Counted from the first letter of the stretch, positions 1,271 to 50,260 are shown. The stretch: DNA of 53,957 nucleotides from Bacteroidales bacterium (GCA_019429045.1 JAHYJL010000002.1:1-53957), one strand, 5' to 3'. The notes: generated from the sequence alone by a model not told the origin. A program made the numbers and translations.

Positions 1271-1283
1271 GAATGCACTTATT

Positions 1284-1381
1284 GTTTCGTGTTTCGTGTT
1301 TCGTGTTTCGTGTTTCGTGTTTCGTGTTTCGTGTTTCGTGTTTCGTGTTTCGTGTTTCGTGTTTCGTGTTTCGTGTTTTCT
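1284..1381 (+). repeat. tandem heptamer array (GTTTCGT)x13 perfect plus 1 degenerate copy (GTTTTCT)
   Basis: Counted directly: perfect copies at 1284+7k up to 1374. It lies between the pcm stop (1270) and the lipoprotein ATG (1450). Confidence 0.98.
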
Positions 1382-2380: not shown

Positions 2381-2435
2381 TTCATCTCCATCATTTTTGA
2401 TAATTTTGAAAAATGATGGAGATGAATTTTATTTT
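2381..2435 (+). promoter_or_regulatory. 18-bp perfect inverted repeat (stem-loop) plus T-tract overlapping the hydroxylase start codons
   Basis: The left arm 2381-2398 TTCATCTCCATCATTTTT is the exact reverse complement of the right arm 2409-2426 AAAAATGATGGAGATGAA. The loop is 2399-2408 GATAATTTTG, followed by TTTTATTTT (2427-2435). The right arm contains the ATGs at 2413, 2416 and 2422. Confidence 0.7.
2401..2408 (+). promoter_or_regulatory. candidate -7 box (TAATTTTG) in the loop of the 2381-2426 hairpin
   Basis: Matches TAnnTTTG, and its G lies 4 nt before ATG 2413. This would imply a leaderless or near-leaderless hydroxylase mRNA. Confidence 0.35.
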
Positions 2436-4158: not shown

Positions 4159-5019
4159 GATTTTCAGCGCTTCATAAACCTCTCCCCTGCTGATTAACTC
4201 TTTAGCCAGCAATTGCAAGGCGTGAGCTTTATCGCCTGATTGCAGCAGCCTGGCCACGTTTACCTGCTTTGCCATGTTGTCAATCTCTTCCCGGGAAGGC
4301 ATGACAGGAAGATTTCCCAGCAGCCCGAGATCATTTCCGGAAAGAATTTTACTCAATCTGACTTGTTCCGGCAATGCATCAACACCGATACCGATTGATG
4401 ACAGAGGTTTTTCCACCTTAAAAATCCCCTCTCCAAAGGCTTTGCAATACCAGTCCCGGCCCATTCTCCCGATGAGCCTGATCTTTTCCTGGTCAATCAA
4501 GCCGTCTTCAGCCAATACATCCTCACTGATGTGCATTAGCAATACTTCACAGATGACCAGGTTGGCTGCACCGCCACCCTGGCCTGTTTCAATAACATCG
4601 CGGACCCTGCATTCCAACTGCACCGGGGACTCCTTTACGCGGAAGGGTTTTACTTTCTCAGAAACCAGTTTCGTAAACCCGGCTTTTTCAAATTCATCAA
4701 CCCCACCGGGAAATTCCGAGCTGGCGAGGCTGGCCTGGTTGACCATTTCGTAAGTTACGACATTGATCACCACTTCAGGTACCACTTTCACATTTTCATA
4801 GGTATGCTTAGTGGTATTGTCTCGTCCGCGGCGGGAGGGGGAGAATATTAATGTTGTAGGATTGACCCCGAAAACATTAAAGAAACTGAATGGGGAAAGA
4901 TTGGGCCTCCCTTCGGCATCCACCGTGCTGGCAAAAGCGATCGGGCGGGGGCCGATACTCCCGAGGAGGAGCTGGTGTATGCGCTGAGTGGTTATATCTG
5001 AGGGGGAAAAGGAATGCAT
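4147..5019 (-). CDS. flavin reductase-like (FMN-binding split-barrel) family protein
   Basis: 290 aa. The N-terminal LLLGSIGPRPIAFASTVDAEGRPNLSPFSFFNVF is typical of the flavin reductase-like domain. It is the last gene of the co-directional hmgA-hppD-fahA block. Its 3' end overlaps the convergent hydroxylase by 12 nt. Confidence 0.8.
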   Translation of the reverse strand: MHSFSPSDITTQRIHQLLLGSIGPRPIAFASTVDAEGRPNLSPFSFFNVFGVNPTTLIFSPSRRGRDNTTKHTYENVKVVPEVVINVVTYEMVNQASLASSEFPGGVDEFEKAGFTKLVSEKVKPFRVKESPVQLECRVRDVIETGQGGGAANLVICEVLLMHISEDVLAEDGLIDQEKIRLIGRMGRDWYCKAFGEGIFKVEKPLSSIGIGVDALPEQVRLSKILSGNDLGLLGNLPVMPSREEIDNMAKQVNVARLLQSGDKAHALQLLAKELISRGEVYEALKILLI

Positions 5020-5026
5020 GGGGGAT

Positions 5027-5096
5027 AGTTTTGAGTTTTGAGTTTTGAGTTTTGAGTTTTGAGTTTTGAGTGTTGAGTGTTGAGTGTTGAGTTAAT
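5027..5096 (+). repeat. tandem heptamer array (AGTTTTG)x6 (AGTGTTG)x3 plus degenerate AGTTAAT
   Basis: Counted directly. It fills the fahA stop (5104) to flavin-reductase ATG (5019) spacer. On the sense (-) strand it reads (CAACACT)3(CAAAACT)6, which contains no G. Confidence 0.98.
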
Positions 5097-5103
5097 TTGA
5101 GAT

Positions 5104-6408
5104 TTAATCCTTGGGGGGCAAAATTATTGTGGTTGCTTCGCCGAAGCCGATGCGAAGGCCATTTTTTTCGGCCCGGCCCCGCATTATGACCGTATCGCCG
5201 TCGTGGAGGAATTTCCGCTCTGAGCCATCGGGCATCCGGATGGGTCTGGTGCCTTTCCAGGTAAGTTCCAGCATAGAACCGAAAGATCCTTCATCTGGTC
5301 CGCTGATCGTCCCGGATGCGCATATATCTCCTGTCCTGACGTTGCACCCGTTCACTGTATGATGCGCCAGTTGCTGGCACATGTTCCAGTACATATATTT
5401 GAAATTAGAACGGCATACTAACATAGCGTCTTTTCCAGAAACTTCATCGCGCTCCGGCAAGCGGCTAACGGCCGGCGGCTCAATCGCCACCTCCAGTTGA
5501 ATATCATAGTTCCTGGCGCCTTCGAACTTCAGGTAAGGCAACACTTCCGGATCCTGAACCGGTCCCTTCGCCCGGAAAGGTTCCAGCGCTTCCAGGGTAA
5601 CAATCCAGGGAGAAATCACCGAGCCGAAGTTTTTGCTCAGAAAAGGCCCCAGCGGAACATATTCCCATTTCTGGATATCCCGGGCTGACAAGTCGTTAAA
5701 TAACACTAATCCAAAGATATAATCCTCCGCATTTGAAGTACTGATTGAGGTGCCCAGATCGGTATTTCCACCTACGATAAATCCAATCTCCAACTCGAAA
5801 TCCAGTTGCTGCGTAGGGCCAAAATCGGGAAAAGATTTGTCGTCGGCTTTGGTTTGCCCTTTCGGGCGATGAATGGGAGTACCCGAGACAACGATTGATG
5901 AGGCACGGCCGTGATAGCCAACAGGTATGTGCTTCCAGTTCGGCAGCAGTGCATTGGCCGGATCGCGGAACATCCTGCCAACATTGGTGGCATGCTCCTC
6001 GCTGGAATAAAAATCTGTGTAGTCGCCTACCGAAACGGGCATTTGCATTTTCACCTCATGCACAGGATACAGGGCGTGGTTTTGCAGTGCAAGGTTTTCT
6101 TTGATCATGGGATTATCCGAAGCAAAAAGCGTCATGATCAGCTCCCTGACTTTACCTGTAACCGGTTTGCCCAGGGCGATGAAATCGTTCAGGATAGGTT
6201 GGTAAAAGACAGATAAATCATTGATCTCCAAGTCATCAAAGAAACCGTGATCAGCCAGGACCGAAAGGTCAACCACCGTGTTGCCAATCCGGGTAGCCGG
6301 CCTTGGGCTGTTTTCATTGTTACTAAAGATCCCGAACGGGATATTCTGCAACGGAAAATCATTCCCTGCAGGCACCCGAATCCAGCTATATCTTAAATCA
6401 TTTCCCAT
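5104..6408 (-). CDS. fahA: fumarylacetoacetase
   Basis: 434 aa with the N-terminal SWIRVPAGNDFPLQNIPFGIFS and a C-terminal FAH-fold region. It is adjacent to hppD and hmgA. Confidence 0.92.
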   Translation of the reverse strand: MGNDLRYSWIRVPAGNDFPLQNIPFGIFSNNENSPRPATRIGNTVVDLSVLADHGFFDDLEINDLSVFYQPILNDFIALGKPVTGKVRELIMTLFASDNPMIKENLALQNHALYPVHEVKMQMPVSVGDYTDFYSSEEHATNVGRMFRDPANALLPNWKHIPVGYHGRASSIVVSGTPIHRPKGQTKADDKSFPDFGPTQQLDFELEIGFIVGGNTDLGTSISTSNAEDYIFGLVLFNDLSARDIQKWEYVPLGPFLSKNFGSVISPWIVTLEALEPFRAKGPVQDPEVLPYLKFEGARNYDIQLEVAIEPPAVSRLPERDEVSGKDAMLVCRSNFKYMYWNMCQQLAHHTVNGCNVRTGDICASGTISGPDEGSFGSMLELTWKGTRPIRMPDGSERKFLHDGDTVIMRGRAEKNGLRIGFGEATTIILPPKD

Positions 6409-6410
6409 CC

Positions 6411-6445
6411 TAAATTCAAAATTATAAATTCTAAATTCTAGATTT
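6411..6445 (+). repeat. degenerate heptamer array TAAATTC AAAATTA TAAATTC TAAATTC TAGATTT
   Basis: Five period-7 units fill the hppD stop (6444-6446) to fahA ATG (6408) spacer. Confidence 0.8.
6417..6424 (-). promoter_or_regulatory. candidate -7 box (TAATTTTG) inside the 6411 array
   Basis: Matches TAnnTTTG on the - strand, 8 nt upstream of the fahA ATG 6408. It may be fortuitous given the AT-rich repeat. Confidence 0.25.
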
Positions 6446-7538
6446 AAAGCGTTCCCCTTTTTTCCTGTTCCCTTTCGATCGATTCAAACAACGCTTTGAA
6501 ATTACCTTTTCCAAATGATTTCGCCCCTTTGCGCTGAATGATCTCATAAAATACCGTGGGCCTGTCTTCAACCGGCTTGGTGAAGATCTGCAGCAAATAC
6601 CCCTCGTCATCCCTGTCGACCAATATATTAAGATCTTTCAGCGGCAGCAAGTCTTCGTCAATCTCCCCTACCCTGTCGAGCACATCATCATAATATGAAT
6701 CTGGAACATAGAGAAATTCCACGCCACGCCTTCGCAGCTCGCCAACGGTATTGATGATATTATCGGTGGCCATAGCGACATGCTGCACGCCCGGCCCCCG
6801 GTAATAATCAATATACTCTTCTATCTGCGACTTTTTCTTCCCCTCTGCCGGCTCATTCAAAGGAAATTTGATACGGTCGTTGCCATTGGCCATTACTTTC
6901 GACATCAATGCCGTATATTCGGTAGAGATGTCCTTGTCGTCGAATGAGATCAACTGCCTGAATCCCATCACATCGGCATAAAATTTTGCCCAAAGGTTCA
7001 TTTCGCCCCAGCCCACATTACCAACCATATGATCGACATATTTCATGCCAATGGGTTCGGTTTTATAGGCCGGTTGCCATTTGGTAAACCCGGGGAGGAA
7101 TGGGCCTTTGTAATCCTTGCGCTCGACAAAGATATGCACCGTTTCGCCGTAGGTATGAATACCTGATCTCACGACCCGCCCATGCTCATCCTGTTCGACA
7201 ACAGGCTGCAGATATGGTTTGGCCCCTCTTTTGACGGTTTCATTGAAAGCGCTGGTGGCATCATCCACCCACAACGCAACAACTTTAACCCCGTCGCCGT
7301 GCAATTTCACATGCTCTCCGATAGGAGAATCGGGGATTAGAGCGGTGGTGAAAACGAAGCGGATCTTATCCTGTACCAGGACATAGGAAGTTTTTTCCTT
7401 GTCGCCGGTCTCCAGTCCCTTGTAAGCCAGAGGCTGAAATCCGAAAGCTGTCCGGTAATAGTAAGCTGCCTGTTTGGCATTGCCAACGTAAAACTCTACG
7501 TAGTCGGTGCCATTGATGGGGAGGAAATCGTGAAACAT
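6444..7538 (-). CDS. hppD: 4-hydroxyphenylpyruvate dioxygenase
   Basis: 364 aa, with two VOC/glyoxalase-like halves and a C-terminal FGKGNFKALFESIE motif typical of HPPD. Confidence 0.93.
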   Translation of the reverse strand: MFHDFLPINGTDYVEFYVGNAKQAAYYYRTAFGFQPLAYKGLETGDKEKTSYVLVQDKIRFVFTTALIPDSPIGEHVKLHGDGVKVVALWVDDATSAFNETVKRGAKPYLQPVVEQDEHGRVVRSGIHTYGETVHIFVERKDYKGPFLPGFTKWQPAYKTEPIGMKYVDHMVGNVGWGEMNLWAKFYADVMGFRQLISFDDKDISTEYTALMSKVMANGNDRIKFPLNEPAEGKKKSQIEEYIDYYRGPGVQHVAMATDNIINTVGELRRRGVEFLYVPDSYYDDVLDRVGEIDEDLLPLKDLNILVDRDDEGYLLQIFTKPVEDRPTVFYEIIQRKGAKSFGKGNFKALFESIEREQEKRGTL

Positions 7539-7546
7539 ACCTTTAT

Positions 7547-7581
7547 AGTTTTGAGTTTTGAGTTTTGAGTTTTGAGTTTAT
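7547..7581 (+). repeat. tandem heptamer array (AGTTTTG)x4 plus degenerate AGTTTAT
   Basis: Counted directly. The unit is the same as in the 5027 array. It lies between the hmgA stop (7589) and the hppD ATG (7538). Confidence 0.97.
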
Positions 7582-7588
7582 TTGGGAT

Positions 7589-8749
7589 TTATCCATTTAG
7601 CCAGCTTTTAAAATAACCGGGATCTTCTATTTCAAGCGCAGCGCGGGTGATTTTCAGCGGCCGGAAGGTATCGACCATGACAGCGAGTTCCCGGGTCTCT
7701 TTCTGCCCGAGGCTTTTTTCCACTGTTCCGGGATGCGGTCCGTGCGGAATGCCAATCGGGTGCAGGGTGATCTGACCGCGCTCCACATGTTTGCGGCTCA
7801 TGAATTCGCCATCGACATAATACAGCACTTCATCCGAATCCACATTACTATGATTATAGGGAACGGGAATGGCCAGCGGATGATAATCGTACATCCTGGG
7901 CACAAAAGCACAGGTTACGAAATTATTCCCATCGAAAGTCTGATGCACGGGAGGAGGCTGGTGAATCCGGCCGGTAATCGGTTCAAAATCATGAATGGAT
8001 AATGCGTAAGGGTAATGATATCCATCCCATCCGATCGCATCAAAGGGGTGCGAGGCGTAATGATAAGGATACACCAGGTCCTGTTTTTTCACCATGACCA
8101 CAAAATCTCCCTTTTCGTCATGGGTTTCAAGCTCCTGCGGTTTACGGATATCCCTTTCATAATAAGGCGCATGTTCCAGCAGTTGTCCGGCATCGTTGAC
8201 GTACCGCTTTGGAAAACGGTAAGGACCAAAGGATTCAACAATAAACAACCGGTTATCCTTTGTCGAAAAATCGAGCCTGTATATTACTCCCCGGGGAATG
8301 ATCAGGTGGTCGCCATAGCGAAAAGGTATATTGCCGTAAATGGTCTTCAGCACTCCTTCGCCCTGGTGGACAAAGACCATTTCATGTCCGTCTGAATTTT
8401 TAAAGAAATGATCCCCTCCCCACTGTTCCGGCGCCGCGAGATGGATATATACGTCGTCGTTGACCAGCACAGCTTTGCGGCTCCTGATATAATCCCCTTC
8501 CGGTTTGACCTTAAATCCCTGGAAGCTACGATGCTGCATATTTTTCTCCAAGGCAATTTCCGGTGCAACTGAAAATGGTTCTTCAATTTCCCTGATTCTT
8601 GTCGGCGGATAATGGTGATACACCAGGGAATATTCGGCTGAAAAGCCTTCCGTTGACACAAGCTGCTCGGCATATAGGTTTCCGTCCGGCTTGCGAAATT
8701 GAATATGTCGCTTGGGAGGGATATCTCCCAGTTTATGATAATGTGGCAT
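7589..8749 (-). CDS. hmgA: homogentisate 1,2-dioxygenase
   Basis: 386 aa cupin-type dioxygenase (MPHYHKLGDIPPKRH...). Its length and its context upstream of hppD and fahA fit bacterial HmgA. Confidence 0.92.
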   Translation of the reverse strand: MPHYHKLGDIPPKRHIQFRKPDGNLYAEQLVSTEGFSAEYSLVYHHYPPTRIREIEEPFSVAPEIALEKNMQHRSFQGFKVKPEGDYIRSRKAVLVNDDVYIHLAAPEQWGGDHFFKNSDGHEMVFVHQGEGVLKTIYGNIPFRYGDHLIIPRGVIYRLDFSTKDNRLFIVESFGPYRFPKRYVNDAGQLLEHAPYYERDIRKPQELETHDEKGDFVVMVKKQDLVYPYHYASHPFDAIGWDGYHYPYALSIHDFEPITGRIHQPPPVHQTFDGNNFVTCAFVPRMYDYHPLAIPVPYNHSNVDSDEVLYYVDGEFMSRKHVERGQITLHPIGIPHGPHPGTVEKSLGQKETRELAVMVDTFRPLKITRAALEIEDPGYFKSWLNG

Positions 8750-8783: not shown

Positions 8784-9770
8784 TCATTCGATTCCGGCAA
8801 AATGCTTCATAAATTGTACCCGTTCATAGGCTGCAGGATTACTGGCCTCTTTATAACTGAGCATGCCGATAAAGTCACTGGTGGAATTGAACTGGTGCTT
8901 CGCCATCCATTCATCCATTTCCTTCAGCATTACCCCGATCTGCTCAAAACCTTTTTTATACAGCACACTGGCCACCTGTACCGCTTTGGCCCCGGCCAGC
9001 ATGAGTTTGATGGCCCCTGTGCCATCGTGAACCCCGGTTGATGCAGCAATATCACAGTGCACCTTATCCGAAAGCATGGCAACCCATCGCAACGGCAGGG
9101 ATATCTCCGCAGGAGTGCTGAAAACATTTGAAGAGGTCACCTCAAACTTATCGATATCGATATCGGGGGAAAAGAAACGGTTGAAGAGCACCAATCCTTT
9201 AATTCCGGTCCAGGAAAGCTGCAATGTCATGTTCGTCAGGCCTGAGAAATAATTGCTGATCTTGGCGGCAACCGGTATGCTCACCTGTTTCATGACCGCC
9301 TGGGTGATATCAAAGTAGACCTGCTCAAGTTGCTCCGCTTTACGCCGGGGATCGGAAGGCAGAACGAAGATATTCAGCTCCAGTGCATCAGCGCCGGCAT
9401 CCTGTATTTTTTTTGAAAATGTAACCCACTCCGAAGAAGAAACGCAATTAATGCTGGCAATAACCGGAATCTTCACTTTCTTTTTCGCATCCCGCATGAG
9501 ATTCAGGTATTTCTCAAGGTCGTTTTCCCGGGTATAATGGCTGATGTAATCAAGGGCTTCCGGATAGGCATTCAGATTATCGTCATGACCCATCGTCTTG
9601 TTAATGGCATAGCTGATCTGCTCTTCAAAAAGAGATTTTAATACTACCGCGCCGGCACCGCTTTCTTCAAGTTTTACAATATTATCAACGGAATTGGTAA
9701 GGCCTGAACTCCCTGCAATAATAGGATTTCTCAACACAAGACCCATAAAAAGGGTGGAAAGTTTGGACAT
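8784..9770 (-). CDS. dihydroorotate dehydrogenase-like (PyrD-family FMN TIM-barrel) protein
   Basis: 328 aa. LRNPIIAGSSGLTNS...GAGAVVLKSLFEEQI resembles class-1 DHOD-like proteins. A GGAGG lies 7 nt upstream of the ATG. Confidence 0.75.
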   Translation of the reverse strand: MSKLSTLFMGLVLRNPIIAGSSGLTNSVDNIVKLEESGAGAVVLKSLFEEQISYAINKTMGHDDNLNAYPEALDYISHYTRENDLEKYLNLMRDAKKKVKIPVIASINCVSSSEWVTFSKKIQDAGADALELNIFVLPSDPRRKAEQLEQVYFDITQAVMKQVSIPVAAKISNYFSGLTNMTLQLSWTGIKGLVLFNRFFSPDIDIDKFEVTSSNVFSTPAEISLPLRWVAMLSDKVHCDIAASTGVHDGTGAIKLMLAGAKAVQVASVLYKKGFEQIGVMLKEMDEWMAKHQFNSTSDFIGMLSYKEASNPAAYERVQFMKHFAGIE

Positions 9771-36335: not shown

Positions 36336-36343
36336 TATTTTTG
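36336..36343 (+). promoter_or_regulatory. candidate -7 box (TATTTTTG)
   Basis: Matches TAnnTTTG, 49 nt upstream of the E2 ATG 36393. Confidence 0.45.
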
Positions 36344-36392: not shown

Positions 36393-37697
36393 ATGGCCAC
36401 ATTTGATATCGTGATGCCCAAACTGGGCGAAAGCATTATTGAGGCAACCATCACCAAATGGCTGAAGGCTGCCGGCGACCAGGTCAATGAAGATGATGCG
36501 CTGGCGGAGATCGCCACCGACAAAGTTGATTCCGAAATTCCTTCCCCTGTGGAAGGCGTTGTAAAAGAGCTTTTTTTCAAAGAGGGTGATATTGTGCCAG
36601 TCGGAAAGGTCATTGCTGTCATTGACCTGGGCGGAGAGGCAGCCACACAGGAAATAAAGGAAGAGGAAAAAGATGCGGAACCGGTAAAAGAAGAGAAACC
36701 GGCAGAAAAAGAAGCAAAACCCGCCCCGGCTGCCCCGGCGAAAGAAAGTGATGAAGCTTATGCTGGCGACAGGTTTTATTCCCCACTGGTAAAAAATATA
36801 GCCGAAAAGGAGAATATATCGTTGCAGGAACTGGACAAGGTTCCGGGAAGCGGCAAAGACGGCCGGCTCACGAAGCAGGACCTGCTTGATTATCTGCAAA
36901 ACAGGCCCTCTGAAGAAGCGGCTCCGGAAAAATCGGTTGCAGCCAAAGCGGTCCCATCCTTTGAAGCGCCGAAAGTGACCACGGAAAGCGGTGATGAGAT
37001 CTATGAGATGGACCGCATGCGAAAGCTCATCGCCGACCATATGGTGATGTCGAAGCAGGTTTCCCCGCATGTTACCTCATTCATTGATGTCGATGTCACG
37101 GCCATCGTCAACTGGCGGGAAAAGAACAAAGATGCCTTCTTCGACCGCGAAAAGGAAAAACTCACCTACACGCACATTTTCATAGAGGCCGCCGCGCAGA
37201 TATTGAAGGAATTCCCGCGTGTGAACGCTTCTGTAGACGGAATGAATATCATCCACAGGAAAAAAATCAATATCGGCATGGCAACGGCCCTGCCCAACGG
37301 TAACCTGATCGTTCCTGTGATTCGCAATGCGGATCAGAAAAACCTGCTAGGTATTATTAAAGACGTGAACGACCTGGCCAACCGGGCCCGGAAGAACAGT
37401 TTGCTACCGGACGAGATCCAGGGAGGCACCTTTACAGTGACCAACTTCGGCACATTCGACAGCCTCACGGGCACTCCCATCATAAACCAGCCGCAGGTCG
37501 CCATCCTGGGCATCGGGGCCATCCGCAAAAAACCGGTAGTCATCGAAACAACCCAGGGCGACGTGATTGGCATACGACACATCATGATCCTGTCCCTGGC
37601 CTATGACCACCGCATGGTCGACGGCGCTCTCGGCGGCATGTACCTGAAAAGAATGAAGGAAATGCTGGAAGATTGGGATTCGGATAGGAAGATATAG
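36393..37697 (+). CDS. 2-oxoacid dehydrogenase E2 component (dihydrolipoamide acyltransferase)
   Basis: 434 aa. It has a lipoyl domain (EIATDKVDSEIPSP), an Ala/Pro/Glu-rich linker, an E3-binding segment and the catalytic LAYDHRMVDG. Confidence 0.9.
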   Translation: MATFDIVMPKLGESIIEATITKWLKAAGDQVNEDDALAEIATDKVDSEIPSPVEGVVKELFFKEGDIVPVGKVIAVIDLGGEAATQEIKEEEKDAEPVKEEKPAEKEAKPAPAAPAKESDEAYAGDRFYSPLVKNIAEKENISLQELDKVPGSGKDGRLTKQDLLDYLQNRPSEEAAPEKSVAAKAVPSFEAPKVTTESGDEIYEMDRMRKLIADHMVMSKQVSPHVTSFIDVDVTAIVNWREKNKDAFFDREKEKLTYTHIFIEAAAQILKEFPRVNASVDGMNIIHRKKINIGMATALPNGNLIVPVIRNADQKNLLGIIKDVNDLANRARKNSLLPDEIQGGTFTVTNFGTFDSLTGTPIINQPQVAILGIGAIRKKPVVIETTQGDVIGIRHIMILSLAYDHRMVDGALGGMYLKRMKEMLEDWDSDRKI

Positions 37698-37699
37698 AA

Positions 37700-37755
37700 G
37701 TTTCTTGTTTCTTGTTTCTTGTTTCTTGTTTCTTGTTTCTTGTTTCTTGTTTCAA
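37700..37755 (+). repeat. tandem heptamer array (GTTTCTT)x7 plus degenerate GTTTCAA
   Basis: Counted directly. It begins 3 nt after the E2 stop (37697). It is the exact reverse complement of the 40304 array unit. Confidence 0.98.
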
Positions 37756-37770
37756 ATTCCGGATTAATCC

Positions 37771-37798
37771 AACATTCAAAATTCAACATTCAACATCA
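37771..37798 (+). repeat. degenerate heptamer array AACATTC AAAATTC AACATTC AACATCA
   Basis: Four period-7 units. The last base is the A of the exonuclease ATG (37798). The array contains no G. Confidence 0.8.
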
Positions 37799-38601
37799 TG
37801 CAACTATCCCTCACCCGCCCGCTCGCCATTTTTGACCTGGAGACTACCGGGACCAACGTCGCCACAGACCGCATCGTGGAAATATCAGTGATCAAATTAA
37901 TGCCCGACGGGTCGAAAGAGGCGCTGAACCAGCGGATCAACCCCGGCATGCCGATTCCGAATGAAGCCACCCTGATCCATGGAATTACAGACCTTGACGT
38001 GAAAGAGAGCCCTTCCTTCAATGATTTTGCCCCAAAACTGAATGATTTTCTCGAAAATGCCGATCTGTCGGGATACAACGCGATCAAATTCGATATACCA
38101 TTGCTTGTTGAAGAGTTTTTAAGAGCAGGGATAGATTTTTCCCTGATGGACCGGCACGTGGTCGATGTGCAGAACATCTTCCATAAAATGGAACCCCGGA
38201 CCCTGAAAGCCGCTTATAAATTCTATTGCGGTAGGATTTTAGAAATGGCCCACTCGGCTGAAGCGGACGCTATGGCAACCTATGAAGTTCTCCTTGCCCA
38301 GCTTGACTTTTACCATGACCAGGAATATACCGATCCCGACGGCATGGTCAGTAAACCGGTGAAGAATGATGTGAAGGCGCTGAGTGATTTTTCCTATTAC
38401 ACCCGCAATGTCGATCTTGTCGGGCATATCGTTTTCAATGAGAAACAGCAGGAAGTGCTGAACTTCGGGAAATACAAAGGCCAGTCGGTAGAGCAGATCT
38501 TTACCAAAGAGCCTTCGTATTACGACTGGATGATGAAAAGTCAGTTTCCCCTTTCGACCAAGCGGGTTATACAGGCGATCTGGAAGAGAAGCAGGAAATG
38601 A
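37798..38601 (+). CDS. DnaQ-like 3'-5' exonuclease (DEDDh) domain protein
   Basis: 267 aa. The motifs are ExoI AIFDLETTG, ExoII YNAIKFDIPLL and ExoIII HSAEADAMAT. Confidence 0.85.
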   Translation: MQLSLTRPLAIFDLETTGTNVATDRIVEISVIKLMPDGSKEALNQRINPGMPIPNEATLIHGITDLDVKESPSFNDFAPKLNDFLENADLSGYNAIKFDIPLLVEEFLRAGIDFSLMDRHVVDVQNIFHKMEPRTLKAAYKFYCGRILEMAHSAEADAMATYEVLLAQLDFYHDQEYTDPDGMVSKPVKNDVKALSDFSYYTRNVDLVGHIVFNEKQQEVLNFGKYKGQSVEQIFTKEPSYYDWMMKSQFPLSTKRVIQAIWKRSRK

Positions 38602-38636
38602 AATTTTGAATTTTAAGTTTTGAATTTTAAATTTTG
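38602..38636 (+). repeat. degenerate heptamer array AATTTTG AATTTTA AGTTTTG AATTTTA AATTTTG
   Basis: Five period-7 units exactly fill the gap between the exonuclease stop (38601) and the first ATG of the ALDH gene (38637). Confidence 0.85.
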
Positions 38637-40259
38637 ATGGGGATGGTAAACACATCTATCTTTCCACCAATGGAACAGATACCGGAGAAGTTCCGGTTAA
38701 GGCACCGGGTGGTGCAGAAGGAGTATCTTATCAACGGCCGTTTGGTGAAATGGGACGGGCGGCTGCAGGAGGTTTATTCGCCGGTATGTATCAAGGCTGA
38801 AAATGGCAGTATCTCCCCTTACCTGATCGGGGAATATCCGATGCTGAAGGCGAAGGAATCGCTGGAGGCGCTGGATTCTGCAGTCGCTGCTTACGATCAT
38901 GGCAGGGGGACATGGCCGACGATGTCGTTAGAACAGCGGATTGCCCACCTGGAGAAGTTCACCTTACGGATGAAAGAGCACCGGGAAGAGGTAATCAACC
39001 TGCTGATGTGGGAGATTGGCAAAACTTTGACCGATTCGGCGAAAGAGTTTGACCGGACTGTCGAGTATATCCGTGATACGATAGAGGCGCTCAAAGAGCT
39101 TGACCGGGTTTCCTCCCGGTTTCAGATCCACCAGGGGATCATCGGCCAGATCCGCCGGGCGCCGCTGGGCGTGGTGCTTTGCATGGGCCCTTTCAACTAT
39201 CCCCTCAATGAAACCTTCACCACCTTGATCCCCGCCCTGATCATGGGCAATACGGTCATTTTCAAGCCTCCCAAATACGGTGTTCTGCTGCATCAACCCT
39301 TGCTTACGGCATTCCGCGACTCTTTCCCGCCGGGCGTTATCAATACGGTTTACGGCGATGGCCCTGAAGTGATCGGCCCGCTGATGGAATCGGGGAAGAT
39401 CGACGTGCTGGCATTTATCGGCACCAGCCGGGTAGCCGGCATCCTGAAAAAGCAGCACCCTAGTCCGCACCGCTTGCGCAGCGTTCTCGGGCTGGAAGCA
39501 AAAAATCCCGCCATCGTTCTGCCCGGCGCCGATCTCGACCTGGCCGTCAGCGAATGCATCCTGGGAAGCCTCTCATATAACGGGCAGCGATGCACCGCGC
39601 TGAAGATCATTTTTGTACATGAATCGATTGCGGAAGAATTCATCCGCAGAATGGCTGAAGGAATATCTTCTCTTAAAATAGGCATGCCGTGGGATGAGAA
39701 AGTACAGATCACCCCCCTGCCAGAAGAAGGCAAAACAGATTACCTGGCAAGACTGGTCAACGATGCCGTTTCCAAAGGGGCTAAGGTGGTGAATGCAGGC
39801 GGTGGAGAAAGCCATCATACCTTCTTCTCCCCCGCCCTGCTCTATCCTGTCAATGGATCTATGAAAGTCTGGACGGAAGAGCAATTTGGCCCGGTGGTGC
39901 CGGTAGCCCCGTTTAAAGATATCGCCGAACCCCTGGAATATGTAACAAACTCCAACTATGGCCAGCAGATCAGCATTTTCGGCAAAGAATCGGATACAAT
40001 TGCAAAACTCATCGATCCGCTGGTGAACCAGGTCTGCCGCCTGAACATCAACAGCCAGTGCCAGCGAGGGCCCGACACCTTCCCCTTCACCGGGCGGAAA
40101 GATTCCGCCGAAGGGACACTGTCGGTTTCCGATGCCCTGCGCGTTTTCTCCATCCGCAGCCTCGTCGCCGCCAAAAGCACCGACCAGAACAAACAGATCA
40201 TTACAACCATTGTCAAGGAAGATAAATCGAATTTCCTGTCGACGGATTTCATTTTCTGA
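38637..40259 (+). CDS. aldehyde dehydrogenase family protein, non-phosphorylating NADP-dependent GAPDH (GapN)-like
   Basis: About 540 aa with ALDH motifs (FKPPKYG, LGLEAKNP, catalytic GQRCTA, EEQFGPV). The track start 38634 is TTG, and the first ATG (38637) directly abuts the heptamer array. An alternative ATG lies at 38670. Confidence 0.82.
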   Translation: MGMVNTSIFPPMEQIPEKFRLRHRVVQKEYLINGRLVKWDGRLQEVYSPVCIKAENGSISPYLIGEYPMLKAKESLEALDSAVAAYDHGRGTWPTMSLEQRIAHLEKFTLRMKEHREEVINLLMWEIGKTLTDSAKEFDRTVEYIRDTIEALKELDRVSSRFQIHQGIIGQIRRAPLGVVLCMGPFNYPLNETFTTLIPALIMGNTVIFKPPKYGVLLHQPLLTAFRDSFPPGVINTVYGDGPEVIGPLMESGKIDVLAFIGTSRVAGILKKQHPSPHRLRSVLGLEAKNPAIVLPGADLDLAVSECILGSLSYNGQRCTALKIIFVHESIAEEFIRRMAEGISSLKIGMPWDEKVQITPLPEEGKTDYLARLVNDAVSKGAKVVNAGGGESHHTFFSPALLYPVNGSMKVWTEEQFGPVVPVAPFKDIAEPLEYVTNSNYGQQISIFGKESDTIAKLIDPLVNQVCRLNINSQCQRGPDTFPFTGRKDSAEGTLSVSDALRVFSIRSLVAAKSTDQNKQIITTIVKEDKSNFLSTDFIF

Positions 40260-40303
40260 TGCATTGGTTGTAATTCGTTATAATTTTATGGATTTCAATT
40301 CTT

Positions 40304-40415
40304 GAAACAAGAAACAAGAAACAAGAAACAAGAAACAAGAAACAAGAAACAAGAAACAAGAAACAAGAAACAAGAAACAAGAAACAAGAAACAAGAAACA
40401 AGAAACAAGAAACAA
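40304..40415 (+). repeat. tandem heptamer array (GAAACAA)x16 perfect
   Basis: Counted directly: copies at 40304+7k up to 40409. The final A of copy 16 is the A of the FAH-family ATG (40415). Confidence 0.98.
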
Positions 40416-41029
40416 TGAAAATCATCTGCATCGGACGAAATTACGTTGAGCATGCCAAAGAGCTGAAAAATCCGCTTCCGAAAAATCCGGTCTTCTTCCT
40501 GAAACCTGAAACGGCGCTGCTTACGGATAATCAACCTTTTCCTTATCCCAGCTTTTCAAGAGATGTTCACTACGAAACCGAACTGGTGCTGAAAATCAGC
40601 CAAACGGGAAAGTCGATTCCCGAATCGGTTGCCTGTGATTACTTCGACCGGATCGGGCTGGGAATTGATTTCACGGCCCGCGATCTGCAGCAAAAGTGCA
40701 AGGAAAAAGGCCTTCCGTGGGAAATTGCCAAAGGGTTTGATCATTCAGCGCCCGTTAGCAAAGTATTTCTGGCTAAATCATCTTTCCCTGATCTGAATAA
40801 TATTCGCTTCCACCTGCTGTTGAATGGTAAAAAGGTACAGGAAGGTAACGCGCGGGATATGATCTTCTCTTTTGAAACGATCATCGCTTACATTTCAAAG
40901 TTTATAACCCTGACACCCGGCGACCTGATCTTCACCGGAACACCCGCCGGCGTTGGCCCGGTAAAAGCAGGCGACAGACTGGAAGGATACATCGAAGACA
41001 AACCAATGATCAGTTGCCAGGTAACATGA
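40415..41029 (+). CDS. fumarylacetoacetate hydrolase (FAH) family protein, short single-domain type
   Basis: 204 aa. MKIICIGRNYVEHAKEL...ETELV...GDLIFTGTPAGVGP is the typical FAHD/HpcE-like fold. Confidence 0.88.
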   Translation: MKIICIGRNYVEHAKELKNPLPKNPVFFLKPETALLTDNQPFPYPSFSRDVHYETELVLKISQTGKSIPESVACDYFDRIGLGIDFTARDLQQKCKEKGLPWEIAKGFDHSAPVSKVFLAKSSFPDLNNIRFHLLLNGKKVQEGNARDMIFSFETIIAYISKFITLTPGDLIFTGTPAGVGPVKAGDRLEGYIEDKPMISCQVT

Positions 41030-42843
41030 AGCCAGGTCGCCAGAAAAAAGGTTTCCTATGGGTTTTTTTGAGCCTTTCATCCCTGGTTTGGATTTACATT
41101 ATTTTACGGGCATGGAAAGTGCAATTCAATATTGATGAAGCGGCCACTTTTTTCATGTATGTCCAAAATGGCAGGTTTTTACCACCCGAAGCAACCATTG
41201 ACGCCAATAACCACCTCTTCAATTCTTTCCTCACCCGGATCAGTTATCATATCTTTGGTTCCATTCCCTTTGCTTTGCGATTGCCGAACGTATTGGCGGC
41301 ATTGATATATTTCTTCTTTATTTACCGGCTATCACTCCTTCTTAAGACCGGAACATCCCGTTATTTGTTCATTATTCTGTCTTTTGGAACACATTTCATC
41401 ATCGAATTTTTTGGATACAGCCGCGGGTATGGATTATCCCTTGCATTTCTCACAGGGGCTGTGTATTATTTACTGAAAGCCAGCCACACCCCGAAACTTA
41501 ATCATATTGTTAAAGCCTTGATCTTAAACATCCTGGCCGTTGCGTCAAACCTTAACCTGGTCTTTACAGGACTTTCTATTCCCATGCTCCTCCTTTTTTT
41601 CCTTCTTTACCACAAATACTCTTTTCAGCGAAAAAGTATCATCCCTGGCATACTGTTCATTGTCTTATTGAGTGTCCCAGCATTTTTTTTCCTGATCCGG
41701 CAATCCCTGGTGATCAAATCGGCATCGGGTTATTATTATGGATCTGATGAAGGATATTTCCCCGTAACGGTGGAATCGCTCAGCCTGATGATAACCGGCC
41801 TGCGAAACAGTGCATTTGCTTACTATTCCATTCTGCTGATATCTATCCTGGTGATTTTCATTTTCATACAATGGATCAGAAGCAAGGAACAAGTGTCAAA
41901 ATACTTATTGCCATTGACATTCCTGGCTCTTCTTTTAGTAAACTGGATCGGTTCGTCAGCGATCAATGTATTGATGAAAGTGAATTTCCAGGAAGACCGG
42001 GCGGCTATCCACTTGTTACCTTTGTTTTACAGTTTCATTGCTTTTCACTTTGATCACGTCCCAAAGAAATATAAGAAATATTGGGTCTTATTAATCATCC
42101 CTTTGCTGTTTATTCCAATACATTCTTTAAAAAAAATCAGTCTGCATGATTCAATTTACGGCCATTCACAGCAAGTGCCTGCGGATTTCTTCTTTTACAT
42201 CCGGGAAAAAGCAGACGAAAATAAGTATCCTCCCGTTGTTTCAGCTTATCAAATCAAAAGACAACCATGGGCGTTTATGAATATTCACAATGGCGGCATG
42301 TTAAATCCGCTGTATGTGACCGATCAACAATGGTATTACGCTGATTATATCATATTCGGCGATTTGATTGATGCCAGGCTGGAAGATCAGTACCGGGCCA
42401 TAATGGAGGATAAGCGCACAAAAAGCATATTGTATGGCAGAAAAAGCGAACCGGTTACCCGGGTCTTGTATGAGATCGAAATCCCGGAAATTTACGAGGG
42501 CCAGGTTTTATATCACAAGATCTTTGAGACAGATGCCGATACGTTAGCCGGCCGGGAACTGATACTTCTCATCAATATGAAGATAGAAAGCCCGGCCAGG
42601 CCTTTTGAGGCGGTCATTGCAGCGGAAGTGCTTGACCTGAACCGGAACATACTGACCTATGAAGCCATCAACCTGGATCAGCTACGACCTTTATGGGATG
42701 GAACTGAAGAAATAAGGCATGTGATCGTGATAGGCGAGGTTCCCCGTGAAGCGCATAAGTTGCTGATGTATGTCTGGAATAAGCGGGAAGTGCCCTTCCG
42801 GTATGAAAATGCCAATGTGAGTGTCGTATCAGTCTGGAATTGA
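41026..42843 (+). CDS. polytopic membrane protein, GT-C (ArnT/PMT-like) glycosyltransferase fold suspected
   Basis: About 605 aa with at least 10 predicted TM helices. A DE-type first-loop motif (FNIDEAATFFMY) is followed by RLPNVLAALIYFFFIY, and there is a soluble tail of about 230 aa. ATG 41026 makes an ATGA overlap with the upstream stop. The track start 41014 is TTG. Confidence 0.55.
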   Translation: MKPGRQKKGFLWVFLSLSSLVWIYIILRAWKVQFNIDEAATFFMYVQNGRFLPPEATIDANNHLFNSFLTRISYHIFGSIPFALRLPNVLAALIYFFFIYRLSLLLKTGTSRYLFIILSFGTHFIIEFFGYSRGYGLSLAFLTGAVYYLLKASHTPKLNHIVKALILNILAVASNLNLVFTGLSIPMLLLFFLLYHKYSFQRKSIIPGILFIVLLSVPAFFFLIRQSLVIKSASGYYYGSDEGYFPVTVESLSLMITGLRNSAFAYYSILLISILVIFIFIQWIRSKEQVSKYLLPLTFLALLLVNWIGSSAINVLMKVNFQEDRAAIHLLPLFYSFIAFHFDHVPKKYKKYWVLLIIPLLFIPIHSLKKISLHDSIYGHSQQVPADFFFYIREKADENKYPPVVSAYQIKRQPWAFMNIHNGGMLNPLYVTDQQWYYADYIIFGDLIDARLEDQYRAIMEDKRTKSILYGRKSEPVTRVLYEIEIPEIYEGQVLYHKIFETDADTLAGRELILLINMKIESPARPFEAVIAAEVLDLNRNILTYEAINLDQLRPLWDGTEEIRHVIVIGEVPREAHKLLMYVWNKREVPFRYENANVSVVSVWN

Positions 42844-42857
42844 TATCCGGATATTTT

Positions 42858-44250: not shown

Positions 44251-44257
44251 TGTAATT

Positions 44258-44292
44258 GTTTCTGGTTTCTGGTTTCTGGTTTCTGGTTCTAA
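44258..44292 (+). repeat. tandem heptamer array (GTTTCTG)x4 plus degenerate GTTCTAA
   Basis: Counted directly. It lies 7 nt upstream of the recF ATG (44250) in the sense direction. On the sense (-) strand it reads (CAGAAAC)4. Confidence 0.95.
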
Positions 44293-44328
44293 GCTTTATT
44301 TTATTACTATTTGAAATGAAATAAATCA

Positions 44329-44356
44329 AGAAACTAGAAACAAGAAACTAGAAAGA
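44329..44356 (+). repeat. heptamer array AGAAACT AGAAACA AGAAACT AGAAAGA, inverted relative to the 44258 array
   Basis: Counted directly. Its reverse complement matches GTTTCT-N in 6 of 7 positions. It lies 22 nt downstream of the PorQ-like gene stop (44378). Confidence 0.9.
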
Positions 44357-44377
44357 AAGCAAAGGTATAAATTTTCC

Positions 44378-45554: not shown

Positions 45555-45589
45555 CGACTAACGACTAACGACTAACGACTATCGACTAC
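45555..45589 (+). repeat. tandem heptamer array (CGACTAA)x3 CGACTAT CGACTAC
   Basis: Counted directly. It ends 1 nt from the aconitase stop codon (45591-45593). Confidence 0.95.
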
Positions 45590-47846: not shown

Positions 47847-47855
47847 ATTTGTTAG

Positions 47856-47916
47856 TGTTGAGGTTTAAGGGTTAAGGTTTAAGTTGAGGTTTAAGTTTTA
47901 AGTGTTAAGGTATAAG
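47856..47916 (+). repeat. degenerate heptamer array, GTTTAAG-like, about 8-9 units with one register slip
   Basis: It reads GTGTTGAG GTTTAAG GGTTAAG GTTTAAG TTGAG GTTTAAG TTTTAAG TGTTAAG GTATAAG. It starts 10 nt upstream of the aconitase ATG (47846) in the sense direction. Confidence 0.8.
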
Positions 47917-47931
47917 TGGATTTTTGATTTG

Positions 47932-47939
47932 CAAAAGTA
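47932..47939 (-). promoter_or_regulatory. candidate -7 box (TACTTTTG)
   Basis: Matches TAnnTTTG on the - strand, 85 nt upstream of the aconitase ATG 47846. This would place the 47856-47916 array inside the 5' UTR. Confidence 0.4.
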
Positions 47940-50229: not shown

Positions 50230-50260
50230 GGGGCATGGGGGCATGGGGGCATGGAGGCGG
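50230..50260 (+). repeat. G-rich octamer array (GGGGCATG)x3 followed by GAGGCGGG
   Basis: Counted directly. It lies between convergent genes that end at 50229 and 50267. It contains four G-runs of at least 3. Confidence 0.95.

Follow-up and report, generated by a model that had tools for sequence, protein, structure and literature searches.

Complementary heptanucleotide arrays flanking an exonuclease and aldehyde dehydrogenase gene pair belong to a lineage-wide set of intergenic microsatellites in uncultured Bacteroidales

Intergenic heptamer repeats next to start codons are a kind of element that has already been described, and the function of such repeats in bacteria, whether the STRR of cyanobacteria (which are heptamer repeats) or those of Beggiatoaceae and some Bacteroidetes, is a long-standing question. 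Where repeats are complementary to each other, two further systems come to mind. In the RNase III stems of rRNA operons, complementary segments lying kilobases apart on one transcript bracket the intervening sequence and form a long helix, and invertible switches such as the Bacteroides capsule promoters, fim and hin are bounded by inverted repeats.

Heptamer repeats just upstream of start codons have been reported from hosts that include Bacteroidetes; in Flexibacter litoralis one repeat set lies in reverse orientation just past a stop codon, and close relatives are without the repeats (PMC4679880). Among the long simple sequence repeats (SSRs) of prokaryotes, heptanucleotides are the commonest long class, according to the summary of Mrazek et al. 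2007 given in PMC4679880. The heptamer repeats of Nostoc are situated near start codons or promoters, that of recF included, and near recF/recO starts (bioRxiv 10.1101/2022.06.06.494920). In Haemophilus influenzae, the (ATCTTTC)n repeat in the 5'-UTR of hmw1A/hmw2A is part of a hairpin processed by RNase III, and both the processing and the repeat number set expression (PMC12721329).

The array pair and the genes it brackets

We analysed a 53,957-nt stretch of DNA from a Bacteroidales bacterium (GCA_019429045.1, JAHYJL010000002.1:1-53957), hereafter the window. The locus under study carries four plus-strand genes: a 2-oxoacid dehydrogenase E2 with lipoyl, E3-binding and catalytic domains (36393..37697), a DEDD 3'-5' exonuclease with RNase_T and ExoX-like C-terminal domains (exo), an Aldedh-family aldehyde dehydrogenase (ALDH) and, downstream of the latter, a FAH-family hydrolase (40415..41029). 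The best solved relatives of the ALDH are GapN enzymes, and it reached no NCBIfam equivalog cut-off. A scan of genome contigs with the ALDH yielded homologues of 63-71% from unrelated phyla and no others; none was syntenic, and heptamer arrays were almost lacking.

An earlier, sequence-only reading of the window had drawn attention to two perfect complementary heptamer arrays around exo and ALDH. Both are present, the first being longer than had been claimed (37700-37753 rather than ending at 37748). This trailer array, (GTTTCTT)7.7 on the plus strand, is 54 nt long, begins 2 nt past the stop codon of E2 and reads U-rich in the mRNA sense. Its partner is the 112-nt, A-rich leader array (GAAACAA)16 at 40304..40415 (plus strand), which adjoins and overlaps the FAH start codon, such that its last A is the A of the ATG. 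Taking a tandem repeat as a 7-nt unit in at least three head-to-tail copies, the arrays hold 7.7 and 16 perfect copies, numbers that are uncertain as the source is a short-read metagenome contig. The stretch 37700-37748 is indeed the reverse complement of 49-nt registers within 40304-40415, exactly so in nine of them. At 100% identity, the longest inverted repeat measures 56 nt (37700-37755 versus 40302-40357); it extends beyond the 54-nt array because the inner edges, GTTTCAA and TTGAAAC, match as well. The gene order and arrays at these spacers recur in independent assemblies of the relatives L167, L171, L165, L166 and L083, so the pair is not a mis-assembly.

As the same reading held, the pair encloses exactly two genes, exo (37798..38601) and ALDH (38637..40259), each with a small leader array of its own. 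The exo leader array (37766..37797, plus strand) consists of about four CAACATT/CAAAATT units, is G-free, ends at the exo ATG and is kept as a CAAAATT-type array in species B, C and D and in L082, L084 and L086. The exo trailer, which is also the ALDH leader (38602..38637, plus strand), has about five AATTTTG/AATTTTA/AGTTTTG units. The consensus units of these two inner arrays, CAAAATT and AATTTTG, are themselves mutually complementary, and in species B their arms form a 25-nt perfect inverted repeat, variant unit included. There was no Rfam match anywhere in the window, and a peptide-coding role for the arrays was rejected, the 38-aa ORF called inside the A-rich array being an artefact of a stop-free repeat.

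Heptamer arrays across the lineage

What the sequence-only reading had missed is that the pair exemplifies a microsatellite system found throughout the lineage. The operon spacers of this uncultured Bacteroidales lineage are filled with heptanucleotide microsatellites: the window holds eight perfect period-7 arrays versus none for periods 4-6 and 9-13, and in about 207 kb sampled from the lineage they number 14.6 and 20.7 per 100 kb, compared with 0.9 and 0.2 in other lineages. Period-7 arrays are 15-20 times denser than in related and unrelated lineages, and other periods show no enrichment.

The arrays follow a positional rule. Those after stop codons (trailers) are T/G-rich in mRNA sense, whereas those before start codons (leaders) are A/C-rich and almost G-free; A-T skew differs between the two classes (P = 1.8e-5), as does C-G skew (P = 1.3e-5), statistics drawn from few independent arrays and from orthologues that are not independent. 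Leaders are separated from the ATG by 0-14 nt and, read in gene sense, show their A/C-rich composition on either strand. Orientation driven by the replication strand was rejected, as array orientation follows the gene strand for genes on both strands.

Further arrays of the window are of the same kind. On the plus strand, the trailer (TGTTTCG)13.7 (1283..1378) starts 12 nt past the PCMT stop codon and has the unit seen in the E2 trailer of species B and C. On the minus strand (units in gene sense), the leader (CAAAACT)6 + (CAACACT)3 (5027..5093) lies 7 nt before a flavin-reductase ATG and has a unit in common with the leader (CAAAACT)4.7 (7547..7579) of an HPPD-like gene; the trailer (TTAGTCG)4.9 (45555..45588) begins 2 nt past the aconitase stop codon; and the G-free, CTTAAAC-type aconitase leader (47854..47918), conserved in L162, L163, L164 and L171, is downstream of TAnnTTTG motifs at 47932 and 47981. 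The minus-strand recF leader (CAGAAAC)4.4 (44258..44288) is complementary to a neighbouring array, (GTTTCTA/GTTTCTT)3.7 (44329..44354, minus strand, also in gene sense), with which it forms a predicted hairpin (z = -3.8) in a window-specific 127-nt spacer that measures only 5 nt in species B and D. A GTTTC/GAAAC core occurs in five window arrays. The genes near arrays are housekeeping or metabolic (E2, exonuclease, ALDH, FAH, recF, aconitase), and no association with contingency (surface or virulence) genes was found among them. In protein searches, the exonuclease had no match above 81% identity, whereas aconitase and E2 have relatives at 90-94%; many exo matches are on contigs of 0.9-1.3 kb, the flanking arrays apparently being points at which assemblies break.

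The arrays are also hypervariable. Between strains L167 and L171, which are 99-100% identical in nucleotide sequence, the FAH leader (unit AAGAACC) has 9 versus 14 units, the E2 trailer 5 versus 6 and the exo trailer 5 versus 4, and such differences between near-identical strains are slippage-type behaviour; L164 has at least 8 copies of the same FAH leader unit. Between species, whole arrays are gained and lost and unit sequences turn over. The E2 trailer unit is GTTTCTT, GTTTCGT, GTTCCGT, GGTTCTT, AATTTTG, AAAGTGC or GTCGACA, with the second to fourth of these in 3-7 copies in species B, C and D, and the FAH leader unit is AAGAAAC, AAGAACC or CCAATAM, the array being absent elsewhere with a spacer of 4 nt. 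Moreover, nearby spacers have unit families in common, some in direct and some in inverted orientation. Neighbouring spacers carry direct copies of the same units or modules in L166, L165 and L083 and at the window arrays at 5027 and 7547, and in L166 whole composite spacer modules, non-repeat junctions included, are common to three spacers; RNA pairing cannot account for such direct-orientation copies. Inverted sharing outside the focal pair is found in the recF spacer of the window and at the exo leader and trailer of species B and L086.

Against this background, we scored the orthologous pair in relatives. In the window, trailer and leader are complementary at 7/7 unit positions; in the sister species B at 5-6/7, with a U-C mismatch in every unit; and in lineage D possibly again at 7/7 through a different unit (GGTTCTT:AAGAACC), on two separate contigs from two samples. 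The scoring covers lineages other than species C, whose contigs (L162, L163, L168, L169) end before the FAH leader. In L166, one of three more distant relatives, a portion of the ALDH-FAH spacer matches the E2 trailer, though the match is weak and partial (83%) and built on another unit. In the other two, L083 and L165, the FAH leader array is absent and the ALDH-FAH spacer is 4 nt. The proposal that relatives keep complementary arrays even as the unit changes may hold for lineage D in the closest clade, is approximated in species B and fails in L083 and L165, each of which has one array of the pair without the other, an outcome that the earlier reading had itself named as counting against it. 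In the closest clade, three species-level lineages retain complementarity between precisely these two spacers. Different substitutions may have re-established it, C>A in the leader of the window and T>G in the trailer of lineage D, and on these sequences its persistence fits selection for pairing and gene conversion equally well.

Explanations for the complementarity

To the following account we give about an even chance of being right as a whole: the pair are ordinary members of the lineage-specific, hypervariable intergenic heptanucleotide microsatellites in the spacers of co-directional genes, and not a programmed inversion switch, with any RNA duplex being unselected or at most weakly selected. 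Shared unit families would explain the complementarity, which is more likely to be their by-product than to serve as a DNA switch. The two arrays, (GTTTCTT)n and (GAAACAA)n, would be complementary through membership of one unit family (GKTTCNT / ANGAAMC), which DNA-level copying or conversion between nearby spacers, as the sharing patterns suggest, would have placed at two spacers; the position-dependent strand rule would then force the trailer and leader copies into opposite orientations. The leader array probably persists as a G-poor, A-rich, AUG-free and structure-free leader suited to Shine-Dalgarno-independent initiation in Bacteroidia; in Bacteroidetes, little secondary structure, an A at -3 and avoidance of AUG tune initiation (PMC6847099). 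If the complementarity is such a by-product, microsatellites can build 50-bp inverted repeats and potential dsRNA in essential operons without apparent harm, which would also account for short-read assemblies fragmenting at such genes.

The strongest competitor, possible though on balance unlikely, is a functional long-range RNA duplex, in which the U-rich E2 trailer would pair with the A-rich FAH leader on an E2-exo-ALDH-FAH(-unknown) mRNA, sequestering the FAH initiation region and/or creating an RNase III site that splits the operon mRNA. The stem length would be tunable by microsatellite slippage, and in species B the exo leader would pair with the exo trailer as well. It is plausible, as the sequence-only reading supposed, that both arrays sit on one transcript. 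A putative Bacteroidetes-type -7 promoter motif, TATTTTTG (36336..36343, plus strand), lies upstream of E2; it is the sole plus-strand TAnnTTTG match in 36.3-41.2 kb, and there is none on either strand between 36343 and 41250 (TAnnTTTG matches number 50 versus 34.5 +/- 5 expected). No terminator-like site occurs in the spacers, and ALDH and FAH are 4 nt apart in two relatives, features with which co-transcription from E2 to FAH is plausible. Scans for sigma-70 promoters and intrinsic terminators gave no enrichment over shuffles; a hairpin with a T-run that is terminator-like by consensus match only (42832..42852, plus strand), after a 605-aa unknown gene, is the likely operon end.

In prediction the proposed duplex does form: the minimum-free-energy fold of 37650-40470 contains a 54-bp helix, the duplex energy is -87 to -95 kcal/mol versus -20 +/- 4 in shuffled controls, and neither array by itself has any predicted structure. 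The species B duplex is predicted at -37 to -46 kcal/mol, and both of its nested complementary pairs enter the predicted minimum-free-energy fold; a lineage-D composite, with its different unit, gives -46 versus -7 +/- 3. The partial match of L166, from yet another unit, points the same way, and the hmw repeat, one arm of a hairpin cut by RNase III, offers a precedent (PMC12721329). However, L083 and L165, without a FAH leader array, indicate that the operon functions without the duplex, the species B helix is interrupted in each unit by its U-C mismatch, and the lineage D case is pieced together from two contigs of different samples. As each array shows just two variants at the critical position, two matches and one mismatch in three lineages are at chance level. 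Direct, non-pairing unit sharing is at least equally common, and only about 1/9 of same-spacer trailer-leader pairs, with spacers read by eye, are complementary, a proportion on which same-spacer hairpins were also rejected as a general translational-coupling device. Finally, with arms of unequal length (54 versus 112 nt) and 2.55 kb between them, pairing would be disfavoured by co-transcriptional folding and by translation. Were RNA pairing nonetheless correct, it would represent a new regulation of internal cistrons in bacteria lacking Shine-Dalgarno recognition.

A broader version of RNA pairing, which we regard as doubtful, would have trailer and leader arrays of one family act as the matched arms of kilobase-scale nested mRNA helices. 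These would partition polycistronic transcripts and gate Shine-Dalgarno-independent initiation at internal cistrons, e.g., by RNase III cleavage or leader sequestration, with helix length and register reset by slippage and complementarity kept by compensatory unit replacement. Such a system would amount to a microsatellite-encoded, evolvable RNA-structure rheostat on housekeeping operons.

Pure coincidence, in which two independent arrays happen to be complementary, is improbable. It would be helped by units being drawn from a compositionally restricted pool, as T/G-rich trailers and A/C-rich leaders are complementary by default, and 8% of arbitrary trailer x leader unit pairs come within one mismatch of complementarity. 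However, when units are sampled at the base compositions observed in trailers and leaders, the probability of an exact complement is 0.0026 per pair, so that about 35 trailer x leader pairs in the window yield about 0.09 expected exact complements versus 2 observed (Poisson P ~0.004, a hand estimate); the pair is therefore not a compositional accident. Exact mutual complementarity of the trailer and leader unit pools is likewise 1.7% versus 0.26% under the composition-only null. Coincidence would also have to cover the match reaching into the variant edge unit GTTTCAA/TTGAAAC and the near-complementarity of the same positional pair in the sister species.

Inversion of the exo-ALDH segment by RecA-dependent recombination between the 54-56 bp perfect inverted repeats, as a switch or a recurrent rearrangement, had been raised by the sequence-only reading and is highly improbable. 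The length of identity exceeds the roughly 25 bp usually quoted as the minimal homology for RecA-dependent recombination in E. coli, but the order and orientation E2>exo>ALDH>FAH are constant in all eight syntenic loci with ALDH and about 50 without it. As that reading noted, no recombinase gene is nearby: neither Pfam/NCBIfam scans, which covered most genes of the window, nor the JGI gene calls, which cover 27.8-48.6 kb, included an invertase, integrase or transposase. With no TAnnTTTG on either strand within the segment, inversion would silence both genes, placing them antisense to the sole recognisable promoter. The species B arrays, 5-6/7 identical, provide no recombination substrate, and copy-number flux would keep altering the arms. 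A TIR-bounded mobile cassette or MITE was also rejected: exo is ancestral at its position, lying between E2 and FAH in about 70 loci, and only the ALDH, lineage-specific in its place between exo and FAH and probably acquired horizontally, is an insertion, one that the arrays do not bound by itself.

Comparison with known systems

Like the invertible switches, the locus has inverted repeats flanking a segment (56 nt, 100%). In contrast to them, it has no site-specific recombinase nearby, no promoter or gene fragment inside and no inverted form among syntenic relatives, and the repeats enclose whole genes. The rRNA stems are conserved with covariation over large distances, whereas the present pair is limited to a few close species and made of unstable microsatellites. 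The hmw system (PMC12721329) is alike in the RNA-duplex model only, in that a transcribed leader heptamer SSR would be one arm of a long dsRNA. There the structure is a local hairpin with a non-repeat, G-rich partner arm at a phase-variable adhesin gene; in the present locus another array, at a distance of 2.55 kb, would serve as the partner, and the predicted pairing concerns metabolic or housekeeping genes. The long SSRs and STRR agree with these arrays in their period-7 excess, non-coding location, sporadic phylogenetic distribution and proposed slippage origin; their descriptions apparently mention neither complementary pairs nor a strand composition that depends on position, both of which are seen here.

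The closest parallel is provided by the TAACTGA-type repeats of Beggiatoaceae, cyanobacteria and a few Bacteroidetes (MacGregor 2015, PMC4679880). They too are intergenic tandem heptamers, mostly a few nt before start codons in a 'forward' orientation; the downstream genes are housekeeping, Shine-Dalgarno sites are rare and close relatives have short, repeat-less spacers. Long arrays occur in Gramella and Aequorivita beside other heptamer repeats. Whereas one unit dominates a genome in those hosts, the uncultured Bacteroidales studied here have many units that turn over between species. They also have opposite-orientation trailer/leader pairs of one family and unit sharing between neighbouring spacers, both absent from the TAACTGA-type account (PMC4679880). 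With its many units, a clear position-strand rule and evidence of unit exchange between spacers, this lineage is an unusually rich and tractable case.

The complementary arrays and their lineage

The gene for a 2-oxoacid dehydrogenase E2 (36393-37697) is followed, 2 nt past its stop codon, by a perfect array of 7.7 copies of GTTTCTT (array 1, 37700-37753), and the FAH-family gene (40415-41029) is preceded by 16 perfect copies of GAAACAA (array 2, 40304-40415), the final A of which is the A of the FAH ATG. Below, an array just after a stop codon is termed a trailer and one just before a start codon a leader. Between the two lie a gene for an RNase_T/ExoX-C exonuclease (exo, 37798-38601) and one for an aldehyde dehydrogenase (ALDH, 38637-40259), whose best solved relatives are GapN enzymes and which reaches no NCBIfam equivalog threshold. 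The reverse complement of 37700-37748 matches array 2 in nine registers, and the longest perfect inverted repeat extends to 56 nt (37700-37755 vs. 40302-40357) owing to a further match between the inner edge units, GTTTCAA and TTGAAAC. The sequence-only reading had thus described the arrays and the two bracketed genes correctly, save for a slight amendment to the extent of array 1. The window corresponds to JGI metagenome contig Ga0369713_1000365. A 38-aa ORF of the source annotation at 40302-40418 (12505-12621 in L081, the fetched locus matching the window) lies wholly inside the stop-free (GAAACAA)16 and is an artefact.

The two arrays belong to a system of heptamer arrays found throughout the lineage. 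Counting perfect arrays of at least 20 nt, the window contains eight with a period of 7 and none with a period of 4-6 or 9-13; TRF recovers about a dozen heptamer arrays, all intergenic and clustered at 1-8 kb and 37-48 kb. The orthologous loci of relatives were fetched via homologues of the exonuclease, aconitase and E2. Per 100 kb, the closest clade has 14.6 perfect heptamer arrays of at least three copies and the wider ALDH-containing clade 20.7 (the lineage being sampled over about 207 kb only), as against 0.9 in 75 more distant loci with exonuclease synteny and 0.2 in 80 loci from other phyla; a comparable enrichment was seen for no other repeat period in these sets. The source is an uncultured member of the Bacteroidales, placed to order level through the names that database sources give. 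The closest named homologues of aconitase and E2 (90-93% identity) come from entries labelled 'MAG: Bacteroidales bacterium', the window encodes a T9SS PorQ equivalog, and the Bacteroidetes -7 motif TAnnTTTG has 50 matches in it vs. 34.5 +/- 5 expected, lying upstream of many genes.

Many close exonuclease homologues (P0124, P0125, P0127, P0128 and others) stand alone on contigs of 0.9-1.3 kb, and the contig of one relative's locus, L164, stops within its FAH leader array. Heptamer arrays seem to be where short-read assemblies of this lineage break, which hides such loci from gene-context surveys. At a convergent gene end (window 50230-50258) there is a G-rich 8-mer array, (GGGGCATG)3.6, that could perhaps fold into a G-quadruplex. 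At the orthologous position, two relatives have a heptamer array of about six copies, CGTAGGG in gene sense (L162 8458-8503; L163 7095-7136). Window 2413-8749 carries a gene cluster for the breakdown of aromatic amino acids and tyrosine (biopterin-dependent hydroxylase, flavin reductase, fumarylacetoacetase, HPPD-like dioxygenase and HgmA-like protein), two genes of which are preceded by identical CAAAACT leader arrays. A mechanical ORF at 1273-2340 reads through a (TGTTTCG)13.7 array; its true start is likely the ATG at 1450, before a signal-peptide-like MKKTLLFALSLL.

Strand preference and turnover of the arrays

We oriented the arrays in the spacers of nine loci to the sense of the adjacent gene. 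Leaders, which end 0-14 nt before the start codon, have more A than T and are almost without G (e.g., CAAAACT, CAAAATT, CTTAAAC, TAACCAT, CCAATAA, AAGAACC and GAAACAA), whereas trailers, which start 0-23 nt past the stop codon, have more T than A and more G than C, convergent gene ends included (e.g., GTTTCTT, GTTTCGT, AATTTTG, GAGTTCT, TTAGTCG and GGTATTG). Leaders and trailers are distinct in both A-T skew (P = 1.8e-5) and C-G skew (P = 1.3e-5; Mann-Whitney tests with orthologous arrays counted once, independence still being imperfect). The rule is valid for genes on both strands and therefore tracks transcription, not replication. The usual order within a spacer is stop codon, T/G-rich array, A/C-rich array, ATG. 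Ribosomes of Bacteroidia do not use Shine-Dalgarno pairing; initiation is favored by weak structure and an A at -3, and AUG is avoided near starts (PMC6847099). (GAAACAA)16 has a predicted self-structure of zero and an A at -3. The G-free, A-rich leader arrays fit these preferences, and we infer that they may be used for initiation.

The closest relatives form four species-level lineages with a mutual nucleotide identity of 88-92%: A (the window), B (L167, L162 and L171), C (L168, L169 and L163) and D (L170 and L164). Two B strains with genes 99-100% identical differ in the FAH leader (9 vs. 14 units), the E2 trailer (5 vs. 6) and the exo trailer (5 vs. 4), which is the behavior of microsatellite slippage, copy numbers from short-read contigs being uncertain. 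In alignments across species the array positions stay put while the units differ. The E2 trailer unit is GTTTCTT in A, GTTTCGT/GTTTCTT in B, GTTTCGT/GTTCCGT in C and GGTTCTT in D, and AATTTTG (L165), AAAGTGC (L083) and GTCGACA (L086) in more distant relatives. The FAH leader unit is AAGAAAC in A, AAGAACC in B and L164, CCAATAA/CCAATAC in 27 copies in L166 and TAATGAC-type in L085, while L083 and L165 have no FAH leader array and an ALDH-FAH gap of 4 nt. The porQ-recF spacer (44251-44377) measures 127 nt in the window vs. 5 nt in B and D, so entire array-bearing spacers arise de novo. Two heptamer arrays complementary to each other, an AT-rich loop and a promoter-like TAcCTTTG (44360-44367, minus strand) make up its extra DNA, which is predicted to fold into a hairpin within a new recF 5'-UTR (fold z = -3.8).

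Unit sharing and the origin of the complementarity

Neighboring spacers share units directly in several loci: the window leaders at 5027 and 7547 are both CAAAACT, the L083 exo and ALDH leaders both TAACCAT-type, and L165 has AATTTTG/AGTTCTG in the trailers of both E2 and exo. L166 has CCAATAA arrays and composite modules in three successive spacers of E2-exo-ALDH-FAH (6155-6338, 7143-7339 and 8945-9253), in which an 11-mer array, TAATGACTACT, is joined by a CCAAATT-type stretch and by CCAATAA/CCAATAC arrays with as many as 27 copies. These shared modules take in non-repeat junctions, which indicates probable copying of whole spacer segments at the DNA level. Elsewhere in L166, 11321-11429 and 12489-12632 have in common a G/C-rich palindromic element (CCCCCTCCCC...GGGGGAGGGG...GGGGTAGGGG), REP- or MITE-like, which is absent from the window.

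Sharing also occurs in inverted form. The exo leader and exo trailer have complementary consensus units in A, form a 25-nt perfect inverted repeat in B that includes the variant unit CAACATT/AATGTTG, and match over 34 nt at 88% in L086; the E2 trailer/FAH leader pair and the recF spacer hairpin arrays are further instances. The GTTTC/GAAAC core recurs in five window arrays (1283, 37700, 40304, 44258 and 44329), with the GTTTC strand in mRNA sense in all three trailers and the GAAAC strand in both leaders. We give about an even chance to the complementarity being a by-product of microsatellite unit exchange between spacers: at the DNA level, slippage-driven microsatellites would pass units from one spacer to another close by, and the position-dependent strand preference would filter the exchanged units. 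We favor this by-product reading because one process covers direct and inverted sharing, turnover, gain and loss, whereas selection for RNA pairing accounts for inverted sharing only.

The serious rival is a functional long-range mRNA duplex, to which we assign a clearly smaller, though real, probability. Promoter and terminator motifs and gene spacing make E2-to-FAH co-transcription plausible: the only plus-strand TAnnTTTG at 36.3-41.2 kb is at 36336, upstream of E2, the operon spacers have no terminator-like sites, one such site lies past the 605-aa protein gene (42832-42852), and the 4-nt ALDH-FAH gap of L083 and L165 counts in the same direction. The predicted inter-array duplex has an energy of -87 kcal/mol when only the arrays are considered and of -95 with the whole spacers, vs. 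-20 +/- 4 for shuffles, and is present in the minimum-free-energy fold of 37650-40470 in a register reaching the ATG. Moreover, the RNase III-processed heptamer-SSR hairpin of H. influenzae hmw, experimentally established, provides a precedent (PMC12721329), and the complementarity of the two spacers persists in the closest clade. The comparison with relatives gives a mixed picture. In D, the E2 trailer (GGTTCTT)3 on L170 and at least eight copies of AAGAACC in the FAH leader on L164 are exact complements differing from the window's unit, albeit on two contigs from two sister samples. In B, where each pair lies on a single contig, 5-6 of the 7 positions in each unit match between the trailer (GTTTCKT) and the complement of the leader (AAGAACC), and the duplex energy (-37 to -46 kcal/mol) is only modestly beyond shuffles; the fold model still pairs these two arrays, and the exo leader with the exo trailer as well, as nested stems. 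More distant relatives have no such pairing save a weak match in L166 (83% over 24 nt, overall duplex energy no better than shuffles), and L083 and L165, with only one of the two arrays, are relatives of the kind that the sequence-only reading named as counting against its proposal. At face value, different changes would have taken A and D each from a B-like state back to perfect pairing. This match-mismatch-match series is what chance would give with only two variants per array at the critical position, and gene conversion between inverted arrays predicts a pattern identical to selection on RNA.

Pure coincidence and DNA inversion are minor readings. Coincidence we consider improbable: among 180 trailer x leader unit pairs exact complements make up 1.7% vs. 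0.26% from the same base compositions, and pairs with at most one mismatch 8.3% vs. 3.6%; all three exact complements involve the E2-to-FAH operon, and the window has two exact pairs vs. ~0.09 expected (P ~0.004, a hand estimate). Perfect complementarity is therefore no compositional accident and reflects shared unit families.

Inversion of the bracketed segment is the least credible reading. Searching window proteins against all fetched loci with tblastn revealed the ancestral order GT2-E2-exo-FAH-DciA(-)-RecF(-) in ~70 loci, with exo directly followed by FAH in ~50 related loci (L086-L161), including L086 (exo identity 77%), which is without ALDH. Insertion of ALDH between exo and FAH is confined to the window's clade; the nearest ALDH homologues (63-71%) are from Phycisphaerae, Syntrophus, Acidobacteriota and other MAGs, suggesting horizontal acquisition. 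With ALDH inserted and exo ancestral in place, the two bracketed genes therefore have no common history as a unit. A 605-aa protein gene (41026-42843) overlaps the FAH stop codon by 4 nt, and its product matches nothing in Pfam or NCBIfam. The gene occurs in A, B, D, L083 and L165 but not in L085, L166 or the contig carrying protein P0122, which makes it the second variable insertion of the operon. In the fetched loci exo is never inverted relative to E2, and exo, ALDH and FAH share a strand in 8/8 ALDH-carrying relatives; the bracketed segment has no TAnnTTTG on either strand, the arms in B are only 5-6/7 identical, and the window genes that were scanned included no invertase, integrase or transposase, as the sequence-only reading had noted of recombinases nearby. 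A rare RecA-dependent event between the 54-bp repeats is conceivable in the window's own population, but with no sign of a switch we regard inversion as very improbable.

Relation to known heptamer repeats

Among the long SSRs of prokaryotes, heptanucleotides form the commonest class, according to Mrazek 2007 as cited in PMC4679880. Intergenic heptamer direct repeats immediately 5' of start codons are known from Beggiatoaceae, cyanobacteria and five Bacteroidetes, with housekeeping genes downstream, close relatives without repeats, one set in reverse orientation directly past a stop codon and a suggested role in translational regulation (PMC4679880). In Nostoc, heptamer repeats near the recF and recO starts influence expression (bioRxiv 10.1101/2022.06.06.494920). 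Four features were not found in the published accounts compared here: a diversity of units within a single lineage, a statistical strand rule that sets trailers apart from leaders, unit exchange between neighboring spacers and the resulting kb-scale complementary array pairs. The window arrays share every testable defining feature of the published intergenic repeats and belong to this already described kind, to which they add some new descriptive features.
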